In this document: positions 2 through 8,405 of the stretch, in pieces
How positions within the stretch are numbered: the first letter of the stretch is position 1
Layout: every line of letters starts with the position of its first letter
UHGV virus genome: UHGV-0214301
Source of the DNA: a virus
Length of the DNA: 10,316 nt
Strand: one strand, 5' to 3'
Position numbers and translations under genes: made by a program
The notes under the pieces: model-generated
Told to the model about the DNA's origin: nothing
The model's input: the letters and a program-made list of their open reading frames with translations, nothing else
Databases searched by the model: none

Positions 2-967
2 ACCCAGACTATCCGCATGATTCTGGTTGTCACGAATACCGAAGCCATCACGCTGAAAATCGACCCGTCGGTGGTACTGGCGACCCGTAAATACGTGGAT
101 GATGAAGTCCTGGAATTAAGACTGTATGTGGATGACAAGATGAGAAACCACATTGCCGCACAGGATCCTCATATCCAGTATGCGCAGAAACATAATCCGA
201 CATTTACCGGAGAACCAAAAGCGCCGACGCCTGCCGCAGGAAATAACACCACGCGGATTGCGACCACTGAGTTTGTTCAGGCTGCTATTATCGCTCTGAT
301 TAACGGTGCGCCTGCCACGCTGGACACACTGAAAGAAATTGCCGCGGCCATTAACAATGACCCGAAATTCAGCACCACCATTAACAATGCGCTGTCAGGT
401 AAGCAGCCACTGGATGAGACGCTGACTCATTTGAGTGGAAAGGATGTTGCCGGTCTTCTCGCATACCTTGGTTTGGGAGAAGGCTCAGCATTACCTGTTG
501 GGGTGCCTGTTCCGTGGCCTTCAGCCACTCCGCCAACAGGCTGGCTGAAATGCAATGGTGCGGCTTTTTCTGCTGAAGAATACCCGGAACTGGCAAAGGC
601 TTACCCGACCAATAAATTGCCTGATTTACGAGGTGAATTTATTCGTGGCTGGGATGACGGGCGTGGTATTGATAATGGGCGAAGCCTTCTTACTGTTCAG
701 GGGTATGCAACAGAGGATCACGCTCATGGATTACCGTCAAGATCCACGATTGTGACTGATGCAACGATTAATTTTTATTTTGATGAAAGCTGGGTAAATA
801 GTGGCACAGACATTATCAAAAGAGGAAACACAAACGATGCCGGATTACCAGCACCGGATTATGGAACCTTTAAAACATATAAACAATCAGTGGCTGGTTT
901 AGGTGCCGCAGCCTCAGAAACGCGTCCGCGTAATATTGCATTTAACTATATCGTGAGGGCAGCCTGA
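2..967 (+). CDS. H: Tail fibre protein, C-terminal part (5' end lies upstream of the window); P2 gpH equivalent
   Basis: Open frame runs from the window edge (frame of position 2) to TGA at 965-967. The translation has a repeated ATTEFV-type fibre shaft motif and a C-terminal segment (PWPSATPPTGWL...GEFIRGWDDGRGID...HAHGLP) typical of Mu S/P1 S-type tail-collar fibre tips. The stop overlaps the start of the next gene as TGATG. Identification by recognition, not search. Confidence 0.88.
   Translation, partial: TQTIRMILVVTNTEAITLKIDPSVVLATRKYVDDEVLELRLYVDDKMRNHIAAQDPHIQYAQKHNPTFTGEPKAPTPAAGNNTTRIATTEFVQAAIIALINGAPATLDTLKEIAAAINNDPKFSTTINNALSGKQPLDETLTHLSGKDVAGLLAYLGLGEGSALPVGVPVPWPSATPPTGWLKCNGAAFSAEEYPELAKAYPTNKLPDLRGEFIRGWDDGRGIDNGRSLLTVQGYATEDHAHGLPSRSTIVTDATINFYFDESWVNSGTDIIKRGNTNDAGLPAPDYGTFKTYKQSVAGLGAAASETRPRNIAFNYIVRAA
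456..481. other. Candidate hix/gix-like 26-bp invertase crossover site, embedded in H at the constant/variable junction
   Basis: Sequence TTCTCGCATACC-TT-GGTTTGGGAGAA is an imperfect dyad: the left half and the reverse complement of the right half (TTCTCCCAAACC) agree at 9 of 12 positions. As I recall hixL (TTCTTGAAAACCAAGGTTTTTGATAA) it matches at about 19 of 26 positions, including the ACC-NN-GGTTT core. It encodes LLAYLGLGE, immediately before the collar-type variable tip. Confidence 0.4.
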
Positions 968-1569
968 TGCATAAAGCAATATTAAATAGTGAGTTTATTG
1001 CAACAAAGGCAGGGGATGTTACCGTTTATAACTACGATGGTGAAACACGGGAATATATTTCCACGTCAACTGAATATCTTGCTGTGGGTGTCGGTATTCC
1101 GGCATGTTCCTGTCTGGATGCACCTGGCATACATAAGGTTGGTTATGCAATCTGTCGTTCTGTGAATTTAAATTCATGGGAATATGTGCCAGACCATCGC
1201 GGTGAAATCGTCTATAGCACCGAAACAGGAGAATCGAAAGAAATCACAGCTCCGGGTGATTATCCTGAAAATACAACCACTATCGCCCCGTTAACGCCAT
1301 ACGATGAATGGAATGGTGAGAAATGGGTGACAGATACCGAGACACAGCATGGCGCAGCAGTAGATGCAGCAGAAGCACAGCGCCAGTCGCTGATTGATAC
1401 TGCAATGGCCTCCATCAATCTGATTCAACTGAAATTACAGGCCGGACGGAAGCTGACGCAGGCAGAAACAACCCGCCTTAACGCTGTGCTGGATTACATT
1501 GACGCGGTGACGGCAACAGATACCAGCACAGCGCCGGATGTCATCTGGCCTGAACTGCCGGAGGCGTAG
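967..1569 (+). CDS. G: Tail fibre assembly protein (Tfa/Mu U family; P2 gpG position)
   Basis: 200-aa ORF whose ATG overlaps the H stop (TGATG). The C-terminus (LNAVLDYIDAVTATDTSTAPDVIWPELPEA) carries the conserved Tfa signature ending APD-x-WP-x-x-P. It sits directly after the fibre gene. P2 gpG is 175 aa as I recall, so this is a different Tfa allele. Confidence 0.85.
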   Translation: MHKAILNSEFIATKAGDVTVYNYDGETREYISTSTEYLAVGVGIPACSCLDAPGIHKVGYAICRSVNLNSWEYVPDHRGEIVYSTETGESKEITAPGDYPENTTTIAPLTPYDEWNGEKWVTDTETQHGAAVDAAEAQRQSLIDTAMASINLIQLKLQAGRKLTQAETTRLNAVLDYIDAVTATDTSTAPDVIWPELPEA

Positions 1570-1669
1570 GCCATTCAATATCTGGCGCACCAGAAGTATC
1601 GACCAGCTCCAGTGCGTCCAGATAATCTAACCACAAATTGTATTGTTCTAAATCGCCACCTTTTAGCAG
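1541..1669 (-). pseudogene. Remnant of an oppositely oriented tail-fibre assembly gene (tfa', C-terminal ~40 codons only)
   Basis: The minus-strand frame translates to LLKGGDLEQYNLWLDYLDALELVDTSGAPDIEWPTPPAVQAR-stop. This aligns with the G C-terminus on the + strand (NAVLDYIDAVTATDTSTAPDVIWPELPEA). It is cut off upstream by an in-frame stop (+ strand 1670-1672) and overlaps the last ~29 nt of G head to head. Confidence 0.6.
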
Positions 1670-2137
1670 TCAACATCCGATCCTCTTTTGAAGGGAAAGG
1701 CATTAATCCATATGGGGTTCCTGAATTGTTAGCGCCAATTTCTTTCCGGATGCAGACTAAGAATTCACTCATATGCCATGCATTTTTTATAAACGACAAG
1801 CATTGCCCAAGAGTGCGTTAGATGATAGGTGGGAAGAAGTGACAGAAACAGCTAATATCATTGTTCAGCGTAGAGTTGGCAGTGGGCTATGCTCCATCAC
1901 TCAGTGTCCGATAGTATAGAGGCTTGCAGTCCAGTGCACAGATTAGTATGTGTCCGTTTTGTTTCATCCATGTATTGGGAACTGTATAGTTAAATAAAAA
2001 GTGTACAAATTACAATCGCCACTGTAATCATGTGAAAGAATAGATTAATATATCGCATCGGCAAACGTAAGGATGATGTTAAATCGCTTGTGGTTTCTAC
2101 TCACAAAATGATGTTTTATTAATTTTAGGGTTTTATT

Positions 2138-2162
2138 AAAAGGGGATGTAATATCCTTTTTT
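2138..2162 (+). terminator. Possible weak hairpin followed by a T-tract, ~48 bp upstream of the acyltransferase ATG
   Basis: AAAAGGGGAT-gtaat-ATCCTTTTTT: a short GGAT/ATCC stem extendable through G-U pairs, followed by T6. The stem is short and AT-rich, so function is uncertain. Confidence 0.2.
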
Positions 2163-2209
2163 ATAAATTTGATGTATGGTTTTTTGAACTTACACATAAA
2201 AGGTATAAC

Positions 2210-3364
2210 ATGCTGCCTAATCAATCAGTTTTACTTATCTGGATGTTTGTGTTGATGACCGCTATCATTGTTTTATTCTCCACGCAACAATTTAATTTCT
2301 TGGACAAGGATGTGAAATACCGAAATGAGCAGATAGATGGTCTCCGTTTTTTCTTATCAATATTTGTTGTGTTTCATCATTATGTGTTGTCTGAATCATA
2401 TTTTTTCGGCTCAGGATGGACATATGATGCAATCAAAGAGTATCCAGTTAACCAAGTTATTGGTAGATATGGGGTTTCCTTATTTTTCATGATCTCTGGA
2501 TTCTTGTTTTGCAATATTAAATCAAGCGCTAGAGATTGGTTTGTTTTTTATATAAAAAGATTCTTCAGGATAGCGCCTTTATTTACTTTATCATCTTGCG
2601 TTTGTATATCTTTAGCCTTTTTTTTATCACAAAATCCGTCAACATCAGACATATCACTAAAGAGCCTCGCCTATTGGTTTAATATGGGGTTGTCCATGAC
2701 TAAACCAGATATATTTAGTTTGCAAAACTCAAGTTTAATTAACGCTTCTGTAACTTGGACTTTGTACTGGGAATGGGGTTTTTATTTTTCACTGCCATTT
2801 GTATTATTTCTAAAATCAAAGTGGTGTGGGCTATCATTGTCTATCAGTATTATCTTTTTATGTGTTTTTATTTACGCAGATATTAATTCATTCAATGCAA
2901 CGCTCATTTCCTTCTTTTCTATAGGGTTTCTCTGCGCAGAGTTAACAAAAATAATTTCGCTATCTGTGCGAACTTGTAATGTGCTTATTGTTTTTGGGGG
3001 GGTGTTCTGCATTTTTATCGTGGATGATCCATATACAATCTTCAGTATTCCAGGTGTTGGTCTGATTTTTTTTGCTATATCAATGGGCGGAGATTTTTTT
3101 GGTTTATTAAAAATGAAAGGTGTTAGAAGACTTGGTGAAATAACATATAGTACTTATATGTTGCATGGAATTTTTCTCTATGTTCTAAATTTTTTTATTT
3201 CTCCTAATATAAGCAAACAGACATACATGTTGTTGTCGAGCTTTACTATCTTGCTTATTCTAATAATATCTTCATTTACATTTTATGTAATAGAAGCCCC
3301 ATTAAATAAATTAGGTTCTCAAATCGCCACTCGTATGCTTAAGACACATTTGAAGAGTCATTAA
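2210..3364 (+). CDS. Acyltransferase family 3 (OafA/Oac-like) integral membrane protein; probable surface-polysaccharide/LPS O-acyltransferase carried as cargo
   Basis: 384-aa ORF, hydrophobic throughout with multiple predicted membrane-spanning segments. It carries the AT3 hallmarks as I recognise them: an N-terminal R-x-IDGLR-x(10)-H motif (RNEQIDGLRFFLSIFVVFHH), GVSLFFMISGFLF, and a C-terminal ITYSTYMLH plus FYVIEAPLNKLG. About 30% GC on counted lines, sharply lower than the flanking tail genes. No fused SGNH domain. Start codon not certain (an internal Met lies at residue 17). Confidence 0.85.
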   Translation: MLPNQSVLLIWMFVLMTAIIVLFSTQQFNFLDKDVKYRNEQIDGLRFFLSIFVVFHHYVLSESYFFGSGWTYDAIKEYPVNQVIGRYGVSLFFMISGFLFCNIKSSARDWFVFYIKRFFRIAPLFTLSSCVCISLAFFLSQNPSTSDISLKSLAYWFNMGLSMTKPDIFSLQNSSLINASVTWTLYWEWGFYFSLPFVLFLKSKWCGLSLSISIIFLCVFIYADINSFNATLISFFSIGFLCAELTKIISLSVRTCNVLIVFGGVFCIFIVDDPYTIFSIPGVGLIFFAISMGGDFFGLLKMKGVRRLGEITYSTYMLHGIFLYVLNFFISPNISKQTYMLLSSFTILLILIISSFTFYVIEAPLNKLGSQIATRMLKTHLKSH

Positions 3365-3384
3365 ACATAGATAATGTTATTTTT

Positions 3385-3414
3385 GCTCTGAAGCGGTTTT
3401 TATTACTTCAGAGC
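3385..3414. terminator. Perfect 9-bp inverted repeat hairpin just after the acyltransferase stop; possible terminator or transcript-stabilising element
   Basis: GCTCTGAAG-cggtttttatta-CTTCAGAGC, 20 bp past the stop at 3362-3364. A T-run precedes the stem and another lies in the loop, but no U-tract follows on either strand, so it is not a canonical intrinsic terminator. Confidence 0.25.
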
Positions 3415-3466
3415 AATACGGATTCCGACAGGTCGGGGTTAAAAAACTGCGCATAACATTATCTGA

Positions 3467-3700
3467 GGGTGCCATTCTGGTTCTCTGGAAGCAACCAGAG
3501 CTAAAGATCGTATTGGTGGCAGACGTCCGAAACTCACCGCGAGTGAGTGGGAGCAGGCCGGACGGTTGCTGGCTGCGGGGGAGTCACGTCAACGTGTGGC
3601 GCTGATTTTTGATATTGGCCTGTCACCGCTCTATAAAAAATTCCCCTCATCAGCGACAAAGAATAAATTGTGTCATCCCTTAGCCAACCGGGACAAATAG
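3467..3700 (+). pseudogene. 3'-terminal remnant of a serine DNA invertase gene (Gin/Hin/Pin/Cin family), C-terminal HTH domain only
   Basis: The frame translates to ...LEATRAKDRIGGRRPKLTASEWEQAGRLLAAGESRQRVALIFDIGLSPLYKKFP..., matching the conserved C-terminal DNA-binding end of Gin/Pin-type invertases (GRIGGR-P-KLT...EWEQAGRLLA-G..R..VA-I.....S.LYK.FP). The frame is closed by TGA at 3464-3466 and there is no catalytic N-terminal domain or start codon upstream. Confidence 0.7.
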
Positions 3701-3740
3701 CCTGACATCTCCGGCACAACTGAAAATACCACTCACCCAT
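3668..3740 (+). promoter_or_regulatory. Putative Ogr-dependent late promoter for the FI operon (PF)
   Basis: Position is immediately upstream of FI. A partial dyad TTGT-N21-ACAA (3668-3696) is centred about 55 bp upstream of a plausible start near 3737. It does not match the TGT-N12-ACA consensus I recall for P2/P4 late promoters, so this is a low-confidence call. Confidence 0.3.
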
Positions 3741-3759
3741 TAACCACGGAGTTAAACGG

Positions 3760-4950
3760 ATGAGTGACTATCATCACGGCGTGCAGGTGCTGGAGATTAA
3801 CGACGGCACCCGCGTCATTTCCACCGTATCCACCGCCATTGTTGGCATGGTCTGCACGGCCAGCGATGCGGATGCGGAAACCTTCCCCCTCAATAAACCT
3901 GTGCTGATTACCAATGTGCAGAGCGCAATTGCAAAGGCCGGTAAAAAAGGCACGCTGGCGGCATCGTTGCAGGCCATCGCTGACCAGTCAAAACCGGTCA
4001 CCGTTGTCGTGCGCGTGGAAGACGGCACCGGTGATGACGAGGAAACGAAACTCGCGCAGACCGTTTCCAATATCATCGGCACCACCGACGAAAACGGTCA
4101 GTACACCGGACTGAAAGCCCTGCTGGCGGCGGAGTCGGTAACCGGTGTTAAACCGCGTATTCTCGGTGTGCCGGGACTGGACACCAAAGAGGTGGCTGTT
4201 GCACTGGCATCAGTCTGTCAGAAGCTGCGCGCTTTCGGGTATATCAGCGCATGGGGCTGTAAGACCATTTCCGAGGTGAAAGCCTACCGCCAGAATTTCA
4301 GCCAGCGTGAGCTGATGGTCATCTGGCCGGATTTCCTCGCATGGGATACGGTCACCAGTACCACCGCCACCGCGTATGCCACCGCCCGTGCGCTGGGTCT
4401 GCGCGCTAAAATCGACCAGGAGCAGGGCTGGCATAAAACGCTGTCCAACGTCGGGGTGAACGGTGTTACCGGCATCAGCGCATCCGTCTTCTGGGATTTG
4501 CAGGAGTCCGGCACCGATGCTGACCTGCTTAACGAGTCAGGCGTCACTACGCTGATTCGCCGCGACGGTTTCCGATTCTGGGGTAACCGTACCTGCTCTG
4601 ATGACCCGCTGTTCCTCTTTGAAAACTATACCCGCACCGCGCAGGTGCTGGCCGACACGATGGCTGAGGCGCACATGTGGGCGGTGGACAAGCCCATCAC
4701 CGCAACGCTGATTCGCGACATCGTTGACGGCATCAATGCCAAATTCCGTGAGCTGAAAACAAACGGCTATATCGTGGATGCGACCTGCTGGTTCAGCGAA
4801 GAATCCAACGATGCGGAAACCCTCAAGGCCGGAAAACTGTATATCGACTACGACTATACACCGGTGCCTCCTCTTGAAAACCTGACCCTGCGCCAGCGTA
4901 TTACCGATAAATACCTGGCAAATCTGGTCACCTCGGTTAACAGCAATTAA
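3760..4950 (+). CDS. FI: Contractile tail sheath protein
   Basis: 396-aa ORF, the same length as P2 gpFI as I recall, first gene of the FI-FII-E-T-U-D order. GGAG Shine-Dalgarno about 9 nt upstream. High-GC codon usage like the neighbouring tail genes. Confidence 0.93.
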   Translation: MSDYHHGVQVLEINDGTRVISTVSTAIVGMVCTASDADAETFPLNKPVLITNVQSAIAKAGKKGTLAASLQAIADQSKPVTVVVRVEDGTGDDEETKLAQTVSNIIGTTDENGQYTGLKALLAAESVTGVKPRILGVPGLDTKEVAVALASVCQKLRAFGYISAWGCKTISEVKAYRQNFSQRELMVIWPDFLAWDTVTSTTATAYATARALGLRAKIDQEQGWHKTLSNVGVNGVTGISASVFWDLQESGTDADLLNESGVTTLIRRDGFRFWGNRTCSDDPLFLFENYTRTAQVLADTMAEAHMWAVDKPITATLIRDIVDGINAKFRELKTNGYIVDATCWFSEESNDAETLKAGKLYIDYDYTPVPPLENLTLRQRITDKYLANLVTSVNSN

Positions 4951-4962
4951 GGAGCCTGACCG

Positions 4963-5481
4963 ATGGCAATGCCGCGCAAACTCAAGTTAATGAACGTCTT
5001 TCTGAACGGCTACAGCTATCAGGGCGTCGCGAAGTCCGTCACGCTGCCAAAACTGACCCGTAAGCTCGAAAACTATCGCGGTGCGGGGATGAACGGCAGC
5101 GCACCGGTAGACCTCGGCCTTGATGACGATGCGCTGTCAATGGAGTGGTCGCTCGGGGGCTTCCCGGATTCGGTTATCTGGGAGCTTTACGCCGCAACCG
5201 GTGTGGATGCTGTGCCGATTCGTTTTGCAGGCTCTTACCAGCGTGACGATACCGGCGAAACGGTGGCCGTCGAAGTGGTCATGCGTGGACGTCAGAAAGA
5301 AATCGACACCGGCGAGGGTAAACAGGGAGAAGACACTGAGTCGAAAATCTCCGTGGTCTGCACCTATTTCCGGCTGACGATGGACGGTAAGGAGCTGGTC
5401 GAAATCGACACCATCAACATGATTGAGAAGGTGAACGGCGTCGACCGGCTGGAGCAACACCGCCGCAATATCGGCCTGTGA
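4963..5481 (+). CDS. FII: Tail tube protein
   Basis: 172-aa ORF, the length of P2 gpFII, 12 nt after the FI stop, preceded by AAGGAG. Confidence 0.93.
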   Translation: MAMPRKLKLMNVFLNGYSYQGVAKSVTLPKLTRKLENYRGAGMNGSAPVDLGLDDDALSMEWSLGGFPDSVIWELYAATGVDAVPIRFAGSYQRDDTGETVAVEVVMRGRQKEIDTGEGKQGEDTESKISVVCTYFRLTMDGKELVEIDTINMIEKVNGVDRLEQHRRNIGL

Positions 5482-5813: not shown

Positions 5814-5965
5814 CGTTCCCGAAAAATCTCTCGGTCGATGACCTGATGGCGGATGTGGCAGTGATATTTCACTGGCCGCCATCAGAACTGTATCCCATGA
5901 GCCTGACCGAACTCATCACATGGCGCGAAAAGGCGCTCCGGCGAAGCGGAAACACGAATGAGTAA
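5538..5965 (+). CDS. E+E': Tail assembly chaperone E+E' (-1 frameshift fusion; 85 aa zero frame + 57 aa in -1 frame)
   Basis: Slipping at 5786-5792 and continuing in the -1 frame gives ...GFLVAELGAVTFPKNLSVDDLMADVAVIFHWPPSELYPMSLTELITWREKALRRSGNTNE-stop. The total is 142 aa, equal to P2 E+E' as I recall, and the end overlaps the T start at 5958, as in the P2 and lambda G/GT arrangement. Confidence 0.75.
5786..5792 (+). other. Programmed -1 ribosomal frameshift slippery heptamer T TTT TTG
   Basis: The zero-frame codons are TTT (5787-5789) and TTG (5790-5792), fitting the X XXY YYZ pattern. The -1 frame is open from here to TAA at 5963-5965. Confidence 0.75.
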
Positions 5966-8405
5966 CAATGTAAAATTACAGGTATTGCTCAGGGCTGTTG
6001 ACCAGGCATCCCGCCCGTTTAAATCCATCCGCACAGCGAGCAAATCGCTGTCGGGGGATATCCGGGAAACACAAAAATCACTGCGAGAGCTGAACGGTCA
6101 GGCATCCCGTATTGAGGGATTTCGCAAGACAAGTGCACAGCTCGCCGTGACTGGTCATGCACTTGAAAAGGCTCGGCAGGAAGCCGAAGCCCTTACCACA
6201 CAGTTTAAAAACACCGAACGTCCGACCCGTGCTCAGGCGAAAGTGCTGGAGTCCGCGAAGCGTGCGGCGGAGGACTTACAGGCGAAATATAACCGCCTGA
6301 CGGATTCCGTTAAACGCCAGCAGCGGGAACTGGCCGTTGTGGGAATTAATACCCGCAATCTTGCACGTGATGAGCAGGGACTGAAAAACCGTATCAGTGA
6401 AACCACCGCACAGCTTAACCGTCAGCGTGACGCGCTGGCGCGTGTCAGTGCGCAACAGGCAAAACTTAACGCAGTAAAACAGCGTTATCAGGCAGGCAAG
6501 GAACTGGCCGGAAATATGGCCTCAGTGGGCGCTGCCGGTGTGGGGATTGCGGCGGCGGGAACGATGGCCGGAGTTAAGTTGCTGACGCCCGGTTATGAGT
6601 TTGCGCAGAAAAACTCAGAATTGCAGGCCGTGCTCGGTGTGGCAAAAGATTCCGCCGAAATGGCCGCGCTCCGCAAGCAGGCGCGCCAGCTCGGCGATAA
6701 TACCGCCGCCTCGGCGGATGATGCAGCCGGTGCGCAGATTATCATTGCGAAAGCGGGTGGAGATGTTGATGCCATTCAGGCGGCAACGCCGGTCACGCTG
6801 AATATGGCGCTGGCGAACCGTCGCACGATGGAAGAAAACGCCGCCCTGCTGATGGGGATGAAATCCGCCTTTCAGCTTTCAAACGATAAGGTCGCTCATA
6901 TCGGGGATGTTCTCTCCATGACGATGAACAAAACCGCCGCCGATTTTGACGGCATGAGCGATGCGCTGACCTATGCCGCACCTGTGGCAAAAAATGCCGG
7001 TGTCAGCATTGAAGAAACCGCCGCAATGGTCGGGGCGCTGCATGATGCAAAAATCACAGGCTCAATGGCGGGAACGGGAAGCCGTGCCGTGTTAAGCCGC
7101 CTGCAGGCACCGACGGGAAAAGCATGGGATGCACTCAAAGAGCTTGGTGTGAAAACCTCAGACAGTAAGGGAAACACCCGACCAGTATTTACCATTCTGA
7201 AAGAAATGCAGGCCAGCTTTGAGAAAAACCGGCTCGGTACTGCCCAGCAGGCTGAATACATGAAAACCATTTTCGGGGAGGAGGCCAGTTCAGCCGCCGC
7301 CGTGCTGATGACTGCCGCCTCAACCGGAAAGCTGGACAAACTGACCGCTGCGTTTAAAGCCTCAGACGGAAAGACCGCAGAGCTGGTAAATATCATGCAG
7401 GACAACCTCGGCGGTGACTTTAAGGAGTTTCAGTCCGCTTATGAGGCGGTGGGGACTGACCTGTTTGACCAGCAGGAAGGCGCACTGCGTAAGCTCACGC
7501 AGACGGCCACAAAGTATGTGTTAAAACTCGACGGCTGGATCCAGAAAAACAAATCACTGGCGTCAACCATCGGCCTTATTGTCGGTGGTGCACTGGCGCT
7601 TACTGGCATCATCGGTGCAATTGGTCTTGTAGCCTGGCCGGTTATCACCGGCATTAATGCCATCATCGCGGCAGCAGGCGCAATGGGGGCAATCTTCACG
7701 ACGGTTGGCAGTGCTGTTATGACGGCCATCGGGGCGATTAGCTGGCCGATTGTGGCTGTGGTGGCCGCCATTGTCGCCGGGGCGTTGCTTATCCGTAAAT
7801 ACTGGGAGCCTGTCAGCGCATTCTTTGGCGGTGTGGTTGAAGGGCTGAAAGCGGCATTTGCGCCAGTGGGGGAACTGTTCACGCCACTTAAGCCGGTGTT
7901 TGACTGGCTGGGTGAAAAGTTACAGGCCGCGTGGCAGTGGTTTAAAAACCTGATTGCCCCGGTCAAAGCTACCCAGGACACCCTGAACCGTTGCCGTGAC
8001 ACGGGCGTCATGTTCGGGCAGGCACTGGCTGACGCGCTGATGCTGCCGCTTAATGCGTTCAACAAACTGCGCAGTGGTATTGACTGGGTACTGGAAAAAC
8101 TCGGTGTTATCAACAAAGAGTCAGACACACTTGACCAGACCGCCGCCAGAACTCAAGCCGCCACGTATGGCAGCGGTGGTTATATTCCGGCGACCAGCTC
8201 TTATGCAGGTTATCAGGCTTATCAGCCGGTCACGGCACCGGCTGGCCGCTCTTATGTGGACCAGAGTAAAAACGAATATCACATCAGCCTGACGGGTGGT
8301 ACTGCACCGGGGACACAGCTTGACCGCCAGTTACAGGATGCGCTCGAAAAATACGAGCGGGATAAACGTGCGCGCGCCCGTGCCAGCATGATGCATGACG
8401 GTTAA
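5958..8405 (+). CDS. T: Tail tape measure protein
   Basis: 815-aa ORF, the length of P2 gpT. The N-terminal region is rich in Q/R/A/L (coiled-coil-like), and there is a long Gly/Ala/Ile-rich hydrophobic segment (LASTIGLIVGGALALTGIIGAIGLVAWPVITG...), typical of tape measure proteins. Position follows E/E'. Confidence 0.93.
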   Translation: MSNNVKLQVLLRAVDQASRPFKSIRTASKSLSGDIRETQKSLRELNGQASRIEGFRKTSAQLAVTGHALEKARQEAEALTTQFKNTERPTRAQAKVLESAKRAAEDLQAKYNRLTDSVKRQQRELAVVGINTRNLARDEQGLKNRISETTAQLNRQRDALARVSAQQAKLNAVKQRYQAGKELAGNMASVGAAGVGIAAAGTMAGVKLLTPGYEFAQKNSELQAVLGVAKDSAEMAALRKQARQLGDNTAASADDAAGAQIIIAKAGGDVDAIQAATPVTLNMALANRRTMEENAALLMGMKSAFQLSNDKVAHIGDVLSMTMNKTAADFDGMSDALTYAAPVAKNAGVSIEETAAMVGALHDAKITGSMAGTGSRAVLSRLQAPTGKAWDALKELGVKTSDSKGNTRPVFTILKEMQASFEKNRLGTAQQAEYMKTIFGEEASSAAAVLMTAASTGKLDKLTAAFKASDGKTAELVNIMQDNLGGDFKEFQSAYEAVGTDLFDQQEGALRKLTQTATKYVLKLDGWIQKNKSLASTIGLIVGGALALTGIIGAIGLVAWPVITGINAIIAAAGAMGAIFTTVGSAVMTAIGAISWPIVAVVAAIVAGALLIRKYWEPVSAFFGGVVEGLKAAFAPVGELFTPLKPVFDWLGEKLQAAWQWFKNLIAPVKATQDTLNRCRDTGVMFGQALADALMLPLNAFNKLRSGIDWVLEKLGVINKESDTLDQTAARTQAATYGSGGYIPATSSYAGYQAYQPVTAPAGRSYVDQSKNEYHISLTGGTAPGTQLDRQLQDALEKYERDKRARARASMMHDG

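Follow-up and report, generated by a model that had tools for sequence, protein, structure and literature searches.

A putative OacB-like acyltransferase gene between tail genes G and FI of a P2-like Escherichia coli prophage

We analysed a 10,316-nucleotide stretch of viral DNA (UHGV-0214301; hereafter the window) and found in it an intact gene for a membrane acyltransferase of the AT3 family, lying among the tail genes of a P2-like prophage. The gene probably encodes a functional OacB-like inner-membrane AT3 acyltransferase without an SGNH domain, a horizontally acquired moron that would acetylate O-antigen and so act in lysogenic conversion. There is good support for a functional transmembrane acyltransferase whose target is a glycan outside the cytoplasm. 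O-antigen as the acceptor is suggested by the closest characterised relative and by phage biology, and we hold it to be slightly better than an even proposition. Our analysis shows the family, the conserved catalytic residues, the fold, the prophage location, the foreign origin and conservation in one prophage lineage; which acyl donor and which glycan acceptor are used, whether a lysogen expresses the gene and what phenotype follows are what we infer.

The acyltransferase and its family

Pfam matches and gene order identified the window as the tail module of a P2-like (Peduovirus) E. coli prophage. ORFs on either side of the acyltransferase gene match the Phage tail collar/fibre, Caudo_TAP, Phage_sheath_1 and Phage_tube families, and outside 1646-3484 the window is 95-97% identical to Peduovirus genomes. 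The acyltransferase gene sits within this module, between the tail-fibre assembly gene G and the sheath gene FI. The features discussed below are as follows.

17..967, + strand: tail-fibre gene H, 3' part (Pfam Collar and Phage_tail_fib)
452-482: relic left crossover site within H, 31 bp, 100% match to L001 2838-2868 in inverted orientation
967..1569, + strand: tail-fibre assembly gene G (Pfam Caudo_TAP, E = 6e-32; syntenic with relatives)
1544..1775, - strand: alternative tail-fibre assembly gene, pseudogene stump (tblastn, allele match)
1776..2209, + strand: AT-rich foreign upstream region, presumed to hold the gene's own promoter and ribosome-binding site (low GC, AAGG motif)
2210..3364, + strand: putative OacB-like AT3-only O-acyltransferase, 384 aa, 11 predicted transmembrane helices
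3383..3416, + strand: stable hairpin, 19 nt past the stop codon, without a U-tract
3527..3700, + strand: Hin/Gin-type DNA invertase, C-terminal stump (tblastn, translation, intact gene in relatives)
3666..3759, + strand: late promoter P_F region with an intact activator (Ogr) binding site, overlapping the end of the invertase stump
3760..4950, + strand: tail sheath gene FI (Pfam Phage_sheath_1, E = 1e-33), right border of the moron slot
4963-5481: tube gene FII, followed in order by E, the tape measure gene T (5958-8405), U and D

The ORF at 2210-3364 (+ strand) is intact, with 1155 nt, 384 encoded residues and 33% GC. An earlier note, made from the letters alone, had described the product as a stand-alone AT3 membrane protein of a prophage and had proposed an HMM search for the family. 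This search gave a significant match to Pfam PF01757 (Acyl_transf_3; E = 1.2e-26, residues 40-354) at 94 bits, against a gathering threshold of 31 bits, and P2-like tail genes were found on both sides, so the description holds. The protein also matched PHROG 3333 'O-acetyltransferase' (E = 7.6e-51). Because 1155 nt are open in stop-rich DNA of 33% GC and the Pfam and PHROG E-values are so low, the ORF cannot be a product of chance. PF01757 was the only Pfam domain found in the 384 residues and no SGNH domain was present, in agreement with the earlier description.

All three AT3 motifs quoted in that note were located: R46-x10-H57, which lies in the first core helix, GVSLFFMISGF at residues 88-98 and YSTYMLH at residues 313-319. 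In addition, the first cytoplasmic loop carries R117-F-F-R120 (RxxR). R/K-x10-H and RxxR are the defining motifs of AT3 proteins (PMC9558356). The protein has the ten-helix transmembrane core whose fold is common to HGSNAT and GWT1 (TmAT superfamily), and the structure model is all-helical through the C-terminus. Searches of the protein against NCBIfam and against PDB sequences gave no family and no match, respectively, and Foldseek against BFVD returned a single match, an unnamed protein of 637 aa. The AT3-SGNH fusions OafA, OafB, GtrC(BTP1) and OatA share the AT3 membrane domain and the R/K-x10-H and RxxR motifs, and some members of this group resemble the window gene in being prophage-borne O-antigen acetylases. 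Unlike these fusions, the window protein lacks an SGNH domain at its C-terminus and carries its extra helix at the N-terminus, where theirs is C-terminal.

OacB, an enzyme of Shigella phage Sf101, was the closest characterised relative (E = 4e-52; 34% identity across residues 1-374). Mutagenesis of OacB identified R47, H58, W71, F98, R116, R119 and S146 as essential (PMC8952252), and all seven are conserved in the window protein, where their counterparts are R46, H57, W70, F100, R117, R120 and S144. In an alignment of 64 homologues R46, H57, F100, R117 and R120 were invariant and W70 nearly so. The likeness to Oac-type prophage O-antigen acetylases that had been proposed from the letters was thereby strengthened, the nearest characterised enzyme being a serotype-converting one with every critical residue kept. 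Oac of Sf6 and E. coli K-12 WecH and OpgC were all far more distant than OacB (alignments over 91, 115 and 64 residues, respectively). WecH, OpgC and NeaT, an acyltransferase discussed below, showed 26-28% identity to the window protein in partial alignments of 64-190 aa.

OacB of the Shigella flexneri phage, like OacC/OacD, is also an AT3-only protein, of about 385-390 aa, and is likewise low-GC cargo of a temperate phage encoded beside a receptor-binding protein gene. At 34% identity the window protein is a homologue and not an orthologue of OacB; at this distance the sequence allows fold and chemistry to be transferred from OacB, but not acceptor specificity. The settings also differ. The gene for OacB occupies the prophage edge of a P22-like podovirus, with the tailspike gene on one side and int/att on the other. 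The window gene lies in the interior of a P2-like myovirus, between G and FI, away from the classical serotype-conversion locus beside int/att. Its host is E. coli, that of OacB Shigella flexneri.

The hydrophobic N-terminal stretch ahead of the R-x10-H motif had been called unusual in the earlier note, which explained it by either a mis-set start or an extra helix. The extra helix stood: residues about 5-23 form a confident helix in the structure model (pLDDT 89-98). The stretch is not unusual, since 60 of the 64 homologues have at least 35 residues with a hydrophobic segment ahead of the conserved arginine, and the OacB alignment begins at residue 1 and includes the extra helix. OacB itself is predicted to have 11 transmembrane helices and a periplasmic N-terminus (PMC8952252). 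A mis-set start was rejected, as no start codon lies between the upstream in-frame stop and the ATG at 2210, which is preceded by a Shine-Dalgarno-like AAGG read 6-7 nt before it and opens a helix common to the homologues. Some database entries begin at M16 (369 aa), which would truncate this helix. Residues 1-5 contain no K or R while residues 24-45 contain three, a charge distribution that fits an N-terminus facing outwards. The stretch is thus predicted to be an eleventh helix, normal for the OacB-like subfamily; Oac, WecH and OpgC are without it.

The insertion site and the displaced tail-fibre switch

GC content is 33-34% over about 1776-3484 (roughly 1.7 kb), against 48-55% in the flanks, and the 1646-2209 stretch has 37% GC against the same flanks. 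In the closest phages, L001 and L002, this space is occupied by an invertible host-range segment, made up of an alternative tail-fibre assembly gene in inverted orientation, an alternative C-terminus of the fibre, a crossover site and a Hin-type invertase. Remnants of this segment were found on both sides of the acyltransferase gene. On the left, 1666-1544 encodes residues 107-147 of 147 (the last 41 codons) of the L001 alternative assembly protein at 93% identity (tblastn), and the adjoining 1661-1775 is degraded and 79% identical to another assembly-gene allele; the stump has in-frame stop codons. On the right, the invertase stump, at 3527-3697, corresponds to residues 141-197 of 197 (the last 57) of the L002 invertase at 94.7% identity (tblastn), and the catalytic N-terminal domain has been deleted. 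No inverted partner of the crossover site at 452-482 is left in the window.

These remnants indicate that the acyltransferase cassette replaced the invertible tail-fibre switch, and the low GC content that the acyltransferase gene is foreign and was acquired horizontally. The replacement removed the catalytic domain of the invertase, the crossover site on the right and the alternative end of the fibre, and fixed the tail fibre in one orientation. The late promoter beyond the stump has remained intact. Between about 3680 and the start of FI its sequence is almost that of P2 17555-17651, a stretch for which an activator site and a transcription start are annotated in P2. The invertase frame runs at its end into the Ogr site of P_F (3666-3700), which may explain why the stump was retained.

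The space between G and FI is known as 'moron position 2' of P2-like phages (PMC3573123). P2 itself carries fun(Z) there, a gene of lysogenic conversion whose product blocks T5. Like the window gene, fun(Z) is non-essential lysogenic-conversion cargo immediately upstream of P_F and FI; it differs in encoding an unrelated protein of 528 aa, on the opposite strand, that acts against T5 by a non-acyltransferase mechanism. In prophage phi-b0847 of strain CFT073 the same slot carries neaT (c0970; Wiles et al. 2013, PMC3573123), found here at L023 33883-34914. NeaT is also a PF01757 acyltransferase, encoded by low-GC DNA (about 30%), rare in E. coli and located at moron position 2. It shares only 26-27% identity with the window protein over about 190 of 384 aa, has 343 aa and no N-terminal extra helix, and its gene runs opposite to the tail genes. 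Orthology of the two was ruled out at this level of identity, and NeaT and the window gene appear to be independent acquisitions of different AT3 lineages. In bacteraemia NeaT contributes to fitness, and it also changes aggregation (PMC3573123).

Public P2-like viral contigs yielded at least five other OacB-like AT3 genes that lie between FI and a tail-fibre or assembly gene (L028, L032, L038/L041, L074/L075 and L084). They share no more than 40% identity with one another, have 31-43% GC in loci of 50-55% GC and occur in either orientation. At least six mutually distinct low-GC AT3 genes, with NeaT in addition, thus hold this slot in different P2-like phages. Capture of AT3 genes at the G-FI slot is thus recurrent and independent and, through NeaT, already described. 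Two published surveys of P2/P4 defence hotspots make no mention of acyltransferases or of the G-FI slot. We also considered capture of AT3 cassettes by the invertase itself and rejected it, because among the slot occupants traces of an invertase were found only in the window and in L028.

A different AT3 gene, with 30% identity and an N-terminal hydrophobic stretch, was seen in Escherichia phage ESSI2_ev239 (Peduoviridae; L011 3917-5020). It lies at the prophage edge beside the integrase and not in the G-FI slot. In two other contigs (L043 3893-5041 and L048 863-2011) an AT3 gene 72% identical to OacB directly adjoins a tail-fibre assembly gene. The assembly genes there are 84-92% identical to G of the window, and their vicinity has no sheath gene, so in another type of phage this fibre module is paired with a different AT3 gene.

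The acceptor glycan and the role in the lysogen

By analogy with OacB, Oac and OafA, the protein would draw on cytoplasmic acyl-CoA for an acyl group, most likely acetyl. The group would pass through a transmembrane pore by way of R46 and H57, a pair in the second helix, and of the cytoplasmic loop with R117-x-x-R120, and would then be esterified to a sugar hydroxyl of an envelope glycan on the periplasmic side. Of the possible acceptors, the repeat unit of the O-antigen is the likeliest. An altered O-antigen on the lysogen could change its antigenicity and the adsorption of O-antigen-dependent phages. A role in lysogenic conversion is in keeping with the slot, which carries such genes elsewhere, namely fun(Z) in P2 and neaT in CFT073.

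The genomic context of the relatives does not name the glycan, because the next protein relatives (44-46% identical) are orphan chromosomal genes outside O-antigen clusters; in Pseudescherichia, for example, one lies between ompW and trpA. The main rival to O-antigen acetylation keeps the fold and the chemistry and changes the acceptor, to enterobacterial common antigen, K capsule, colanic acid, LPS core, periplasmic glucans or peptidoglycan. The benefit would then be a NeaT-like host interaction (immune evasion, aggregation) instead of serotype conversion or phage blocking. In favour of this reading, AT3-only enzymes are known to work on many glycans (PMC9558356), NeaT, from the same P2 slot, affects bacteraemia fitness and aggregation without a defined substrate, and the context of the closest homologues does not point to O-antigen. 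Against it, OacB, at 34% across the full length, is a much nearer relative than WecH, OpgC or NeaT, and the characterised members seen in this clade, OacB and the relatives in L043/L048 that are 72% identical to it, are either O-antigen enzymes or closely related to such enzymes. On balance we regard another acceptor as possible rather than likely.

The phage exclusion suggested in the earlier note would be a consequence of receptor modification and not a separate mechanism. A dedicated superinfection-exclusion or anti-phage factor, which would replace fun(Z) in function and mask the receptor of the phage itself or of its competitors, seems improbable to us. The gene does occupy the slot of the T5 blocker, adjoins the tail-fibre genes and has taken the place of a host-range switch, and O-acetylation by Oac of Sf6 confers superinfection immunity (PMC9558356). 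However, no PADLOC defence-system model matched the protein at E <= 0.01, there is no homology in kind to fun(Z) (528 aa, opposite strand), and acyltransferases are absent from the two P2 defence-hotspot surveys noted above.

A more speculative proposal, which we consider rather unlikely, concerns the slot as a whole. G-FI could be a dedicated 'receptor-editing' slot that recurrently captures AT3 enzymes matched to the glycan recognised by the phage's own tail fibre, in which case this lineage would have traded an invertible host-range switch for a receptor-masking enzyme. One fibre would then be locked, and the lysogen and the released virions would be protected from adsorption of phages that use the same receptor.

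Prophage-borne glycan acetylases alter serotype, recognition by vaccines and antibodies, and phage susceptibility. An E. coli enzyme of this kind may therefore explain O-acetylation that is not encoded by the O-antigen cluster, or resistance to therapeutic phages. The gene adds a member to a well-known class of prophage cargo, not a new mechanism. That different AT3 genes recur at the P2 slot beside fibre genes suggests a broader connection between receptor-binding and receptor-modifying genes, which is open to systematic survey. Compared with the first classification, the start codon, the subfamily, the insertion history and the precedent are now refined; the first reading had left out the replacement of the switch by the cassette, P2 moron position 2 and the NeaT precedent.

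Control regions, distribution and variants

The region upstream of the gene (1776-2209) had no match in 5426 complete E. coli genomes, and the two largest ORFs that overlap it (69 and 59 aa) had no Pfam, PHROG or PADLOC match. A promoter scan found no consensus sigma-70 promoter above chance before the gene, and fewer promoter-like sites than in shuffled sequences. AT-rich DNA of this kind is often silenced. An Rfam search over 1500-3800 gave nothing. The hairpin downstream of the gene (3383-3416) has a folding energy of -18.2 kcal/mol (z = -3.9), and none of 200 shuffles was as stable. The terminator scan did not call it; it may be a cassette-borne terminator or an element that stabilises the transcript.

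The window protein is identical to variant P0121, the commonest variant, which occurs in 112 blocks of the sequence collection; all P0121 blocks that bear a name are E. coli. The gene context was identical in 24 of 24 contigs examined. Four independent assemblies differed by 0-2 nt within the gene and not at all in the 640 nt upstream or the 395 nt downstream, which points to one young prophage lineage. By megablast and blastn the gene was absent from 5426 complete RefSeq E. coli genomes, where only the flanking stumps were found. More widely, a Salmonella relative with 33% identity adjoins prophage genes, and IMG/VR holds at least 280 phage-borne relatives. Forty-eight of 70 IMG/VR relatives lie within 5 kb of a contig end, compared with 24 expected.

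Several homopolymer runs were found in the gene: T8 at 2618-2625, G7 at 2996-3002, T8 at 3066-3073, T7 at 3094-3100 and T7 at 3190-3196. T-runs of at least seven number four, versus 1.2 expected from shuffling. Two frameshifted variants in the database break at such runs, P0125 (149 aa) at the T8 of 2618 and P0131 (305 aa) at the T7 of 3094. They could reflect slipped-strand on/off switching or errors of sequencing or assembly, and some hosts may carry an inactive copy.

These frameshifted variants, the failure of the scan to detect a promoter, the unameliorated composition (33% GC) and the absence from the complete RefSeq genomes would suit a passenger gene, silent or decaying, that has no function in the lysogen today. 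We consider this highly improbable, given that the full-length ORF and all catalytic residues are preserved and that the intact form is the commonest variant. An ORF of 1155 nt in AT-rich DNA would also decay fast without selection, although this argument carries only moderate weight because the lineage is young.

A contig that encodes a protein variant with one changed residue (T164A) was found to contain the complete prophage, from terminase to ogr. The prophage adjoins a peptidase-U32 gene, a DUF1508 gene and a response regulator, which is the trhP-yegP-baeR neighbourhood where K-12 has the cryptic P2 remnant PR-X. In another strain (L012 2606-2825) the lysis, R, S, V, W and J genes have been lost from the prophage while the acyltransferase gene is intact; there the cargo has outlasted the phage functions. 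Finally, a 261-aa ORF without a Pfam match was seen in the same prophage outside the window (L003 4065-4850, - strand). It lies on the opposite strand, between the tail-completion gene S and the baseplate gene V, and may be a second cargo gene.
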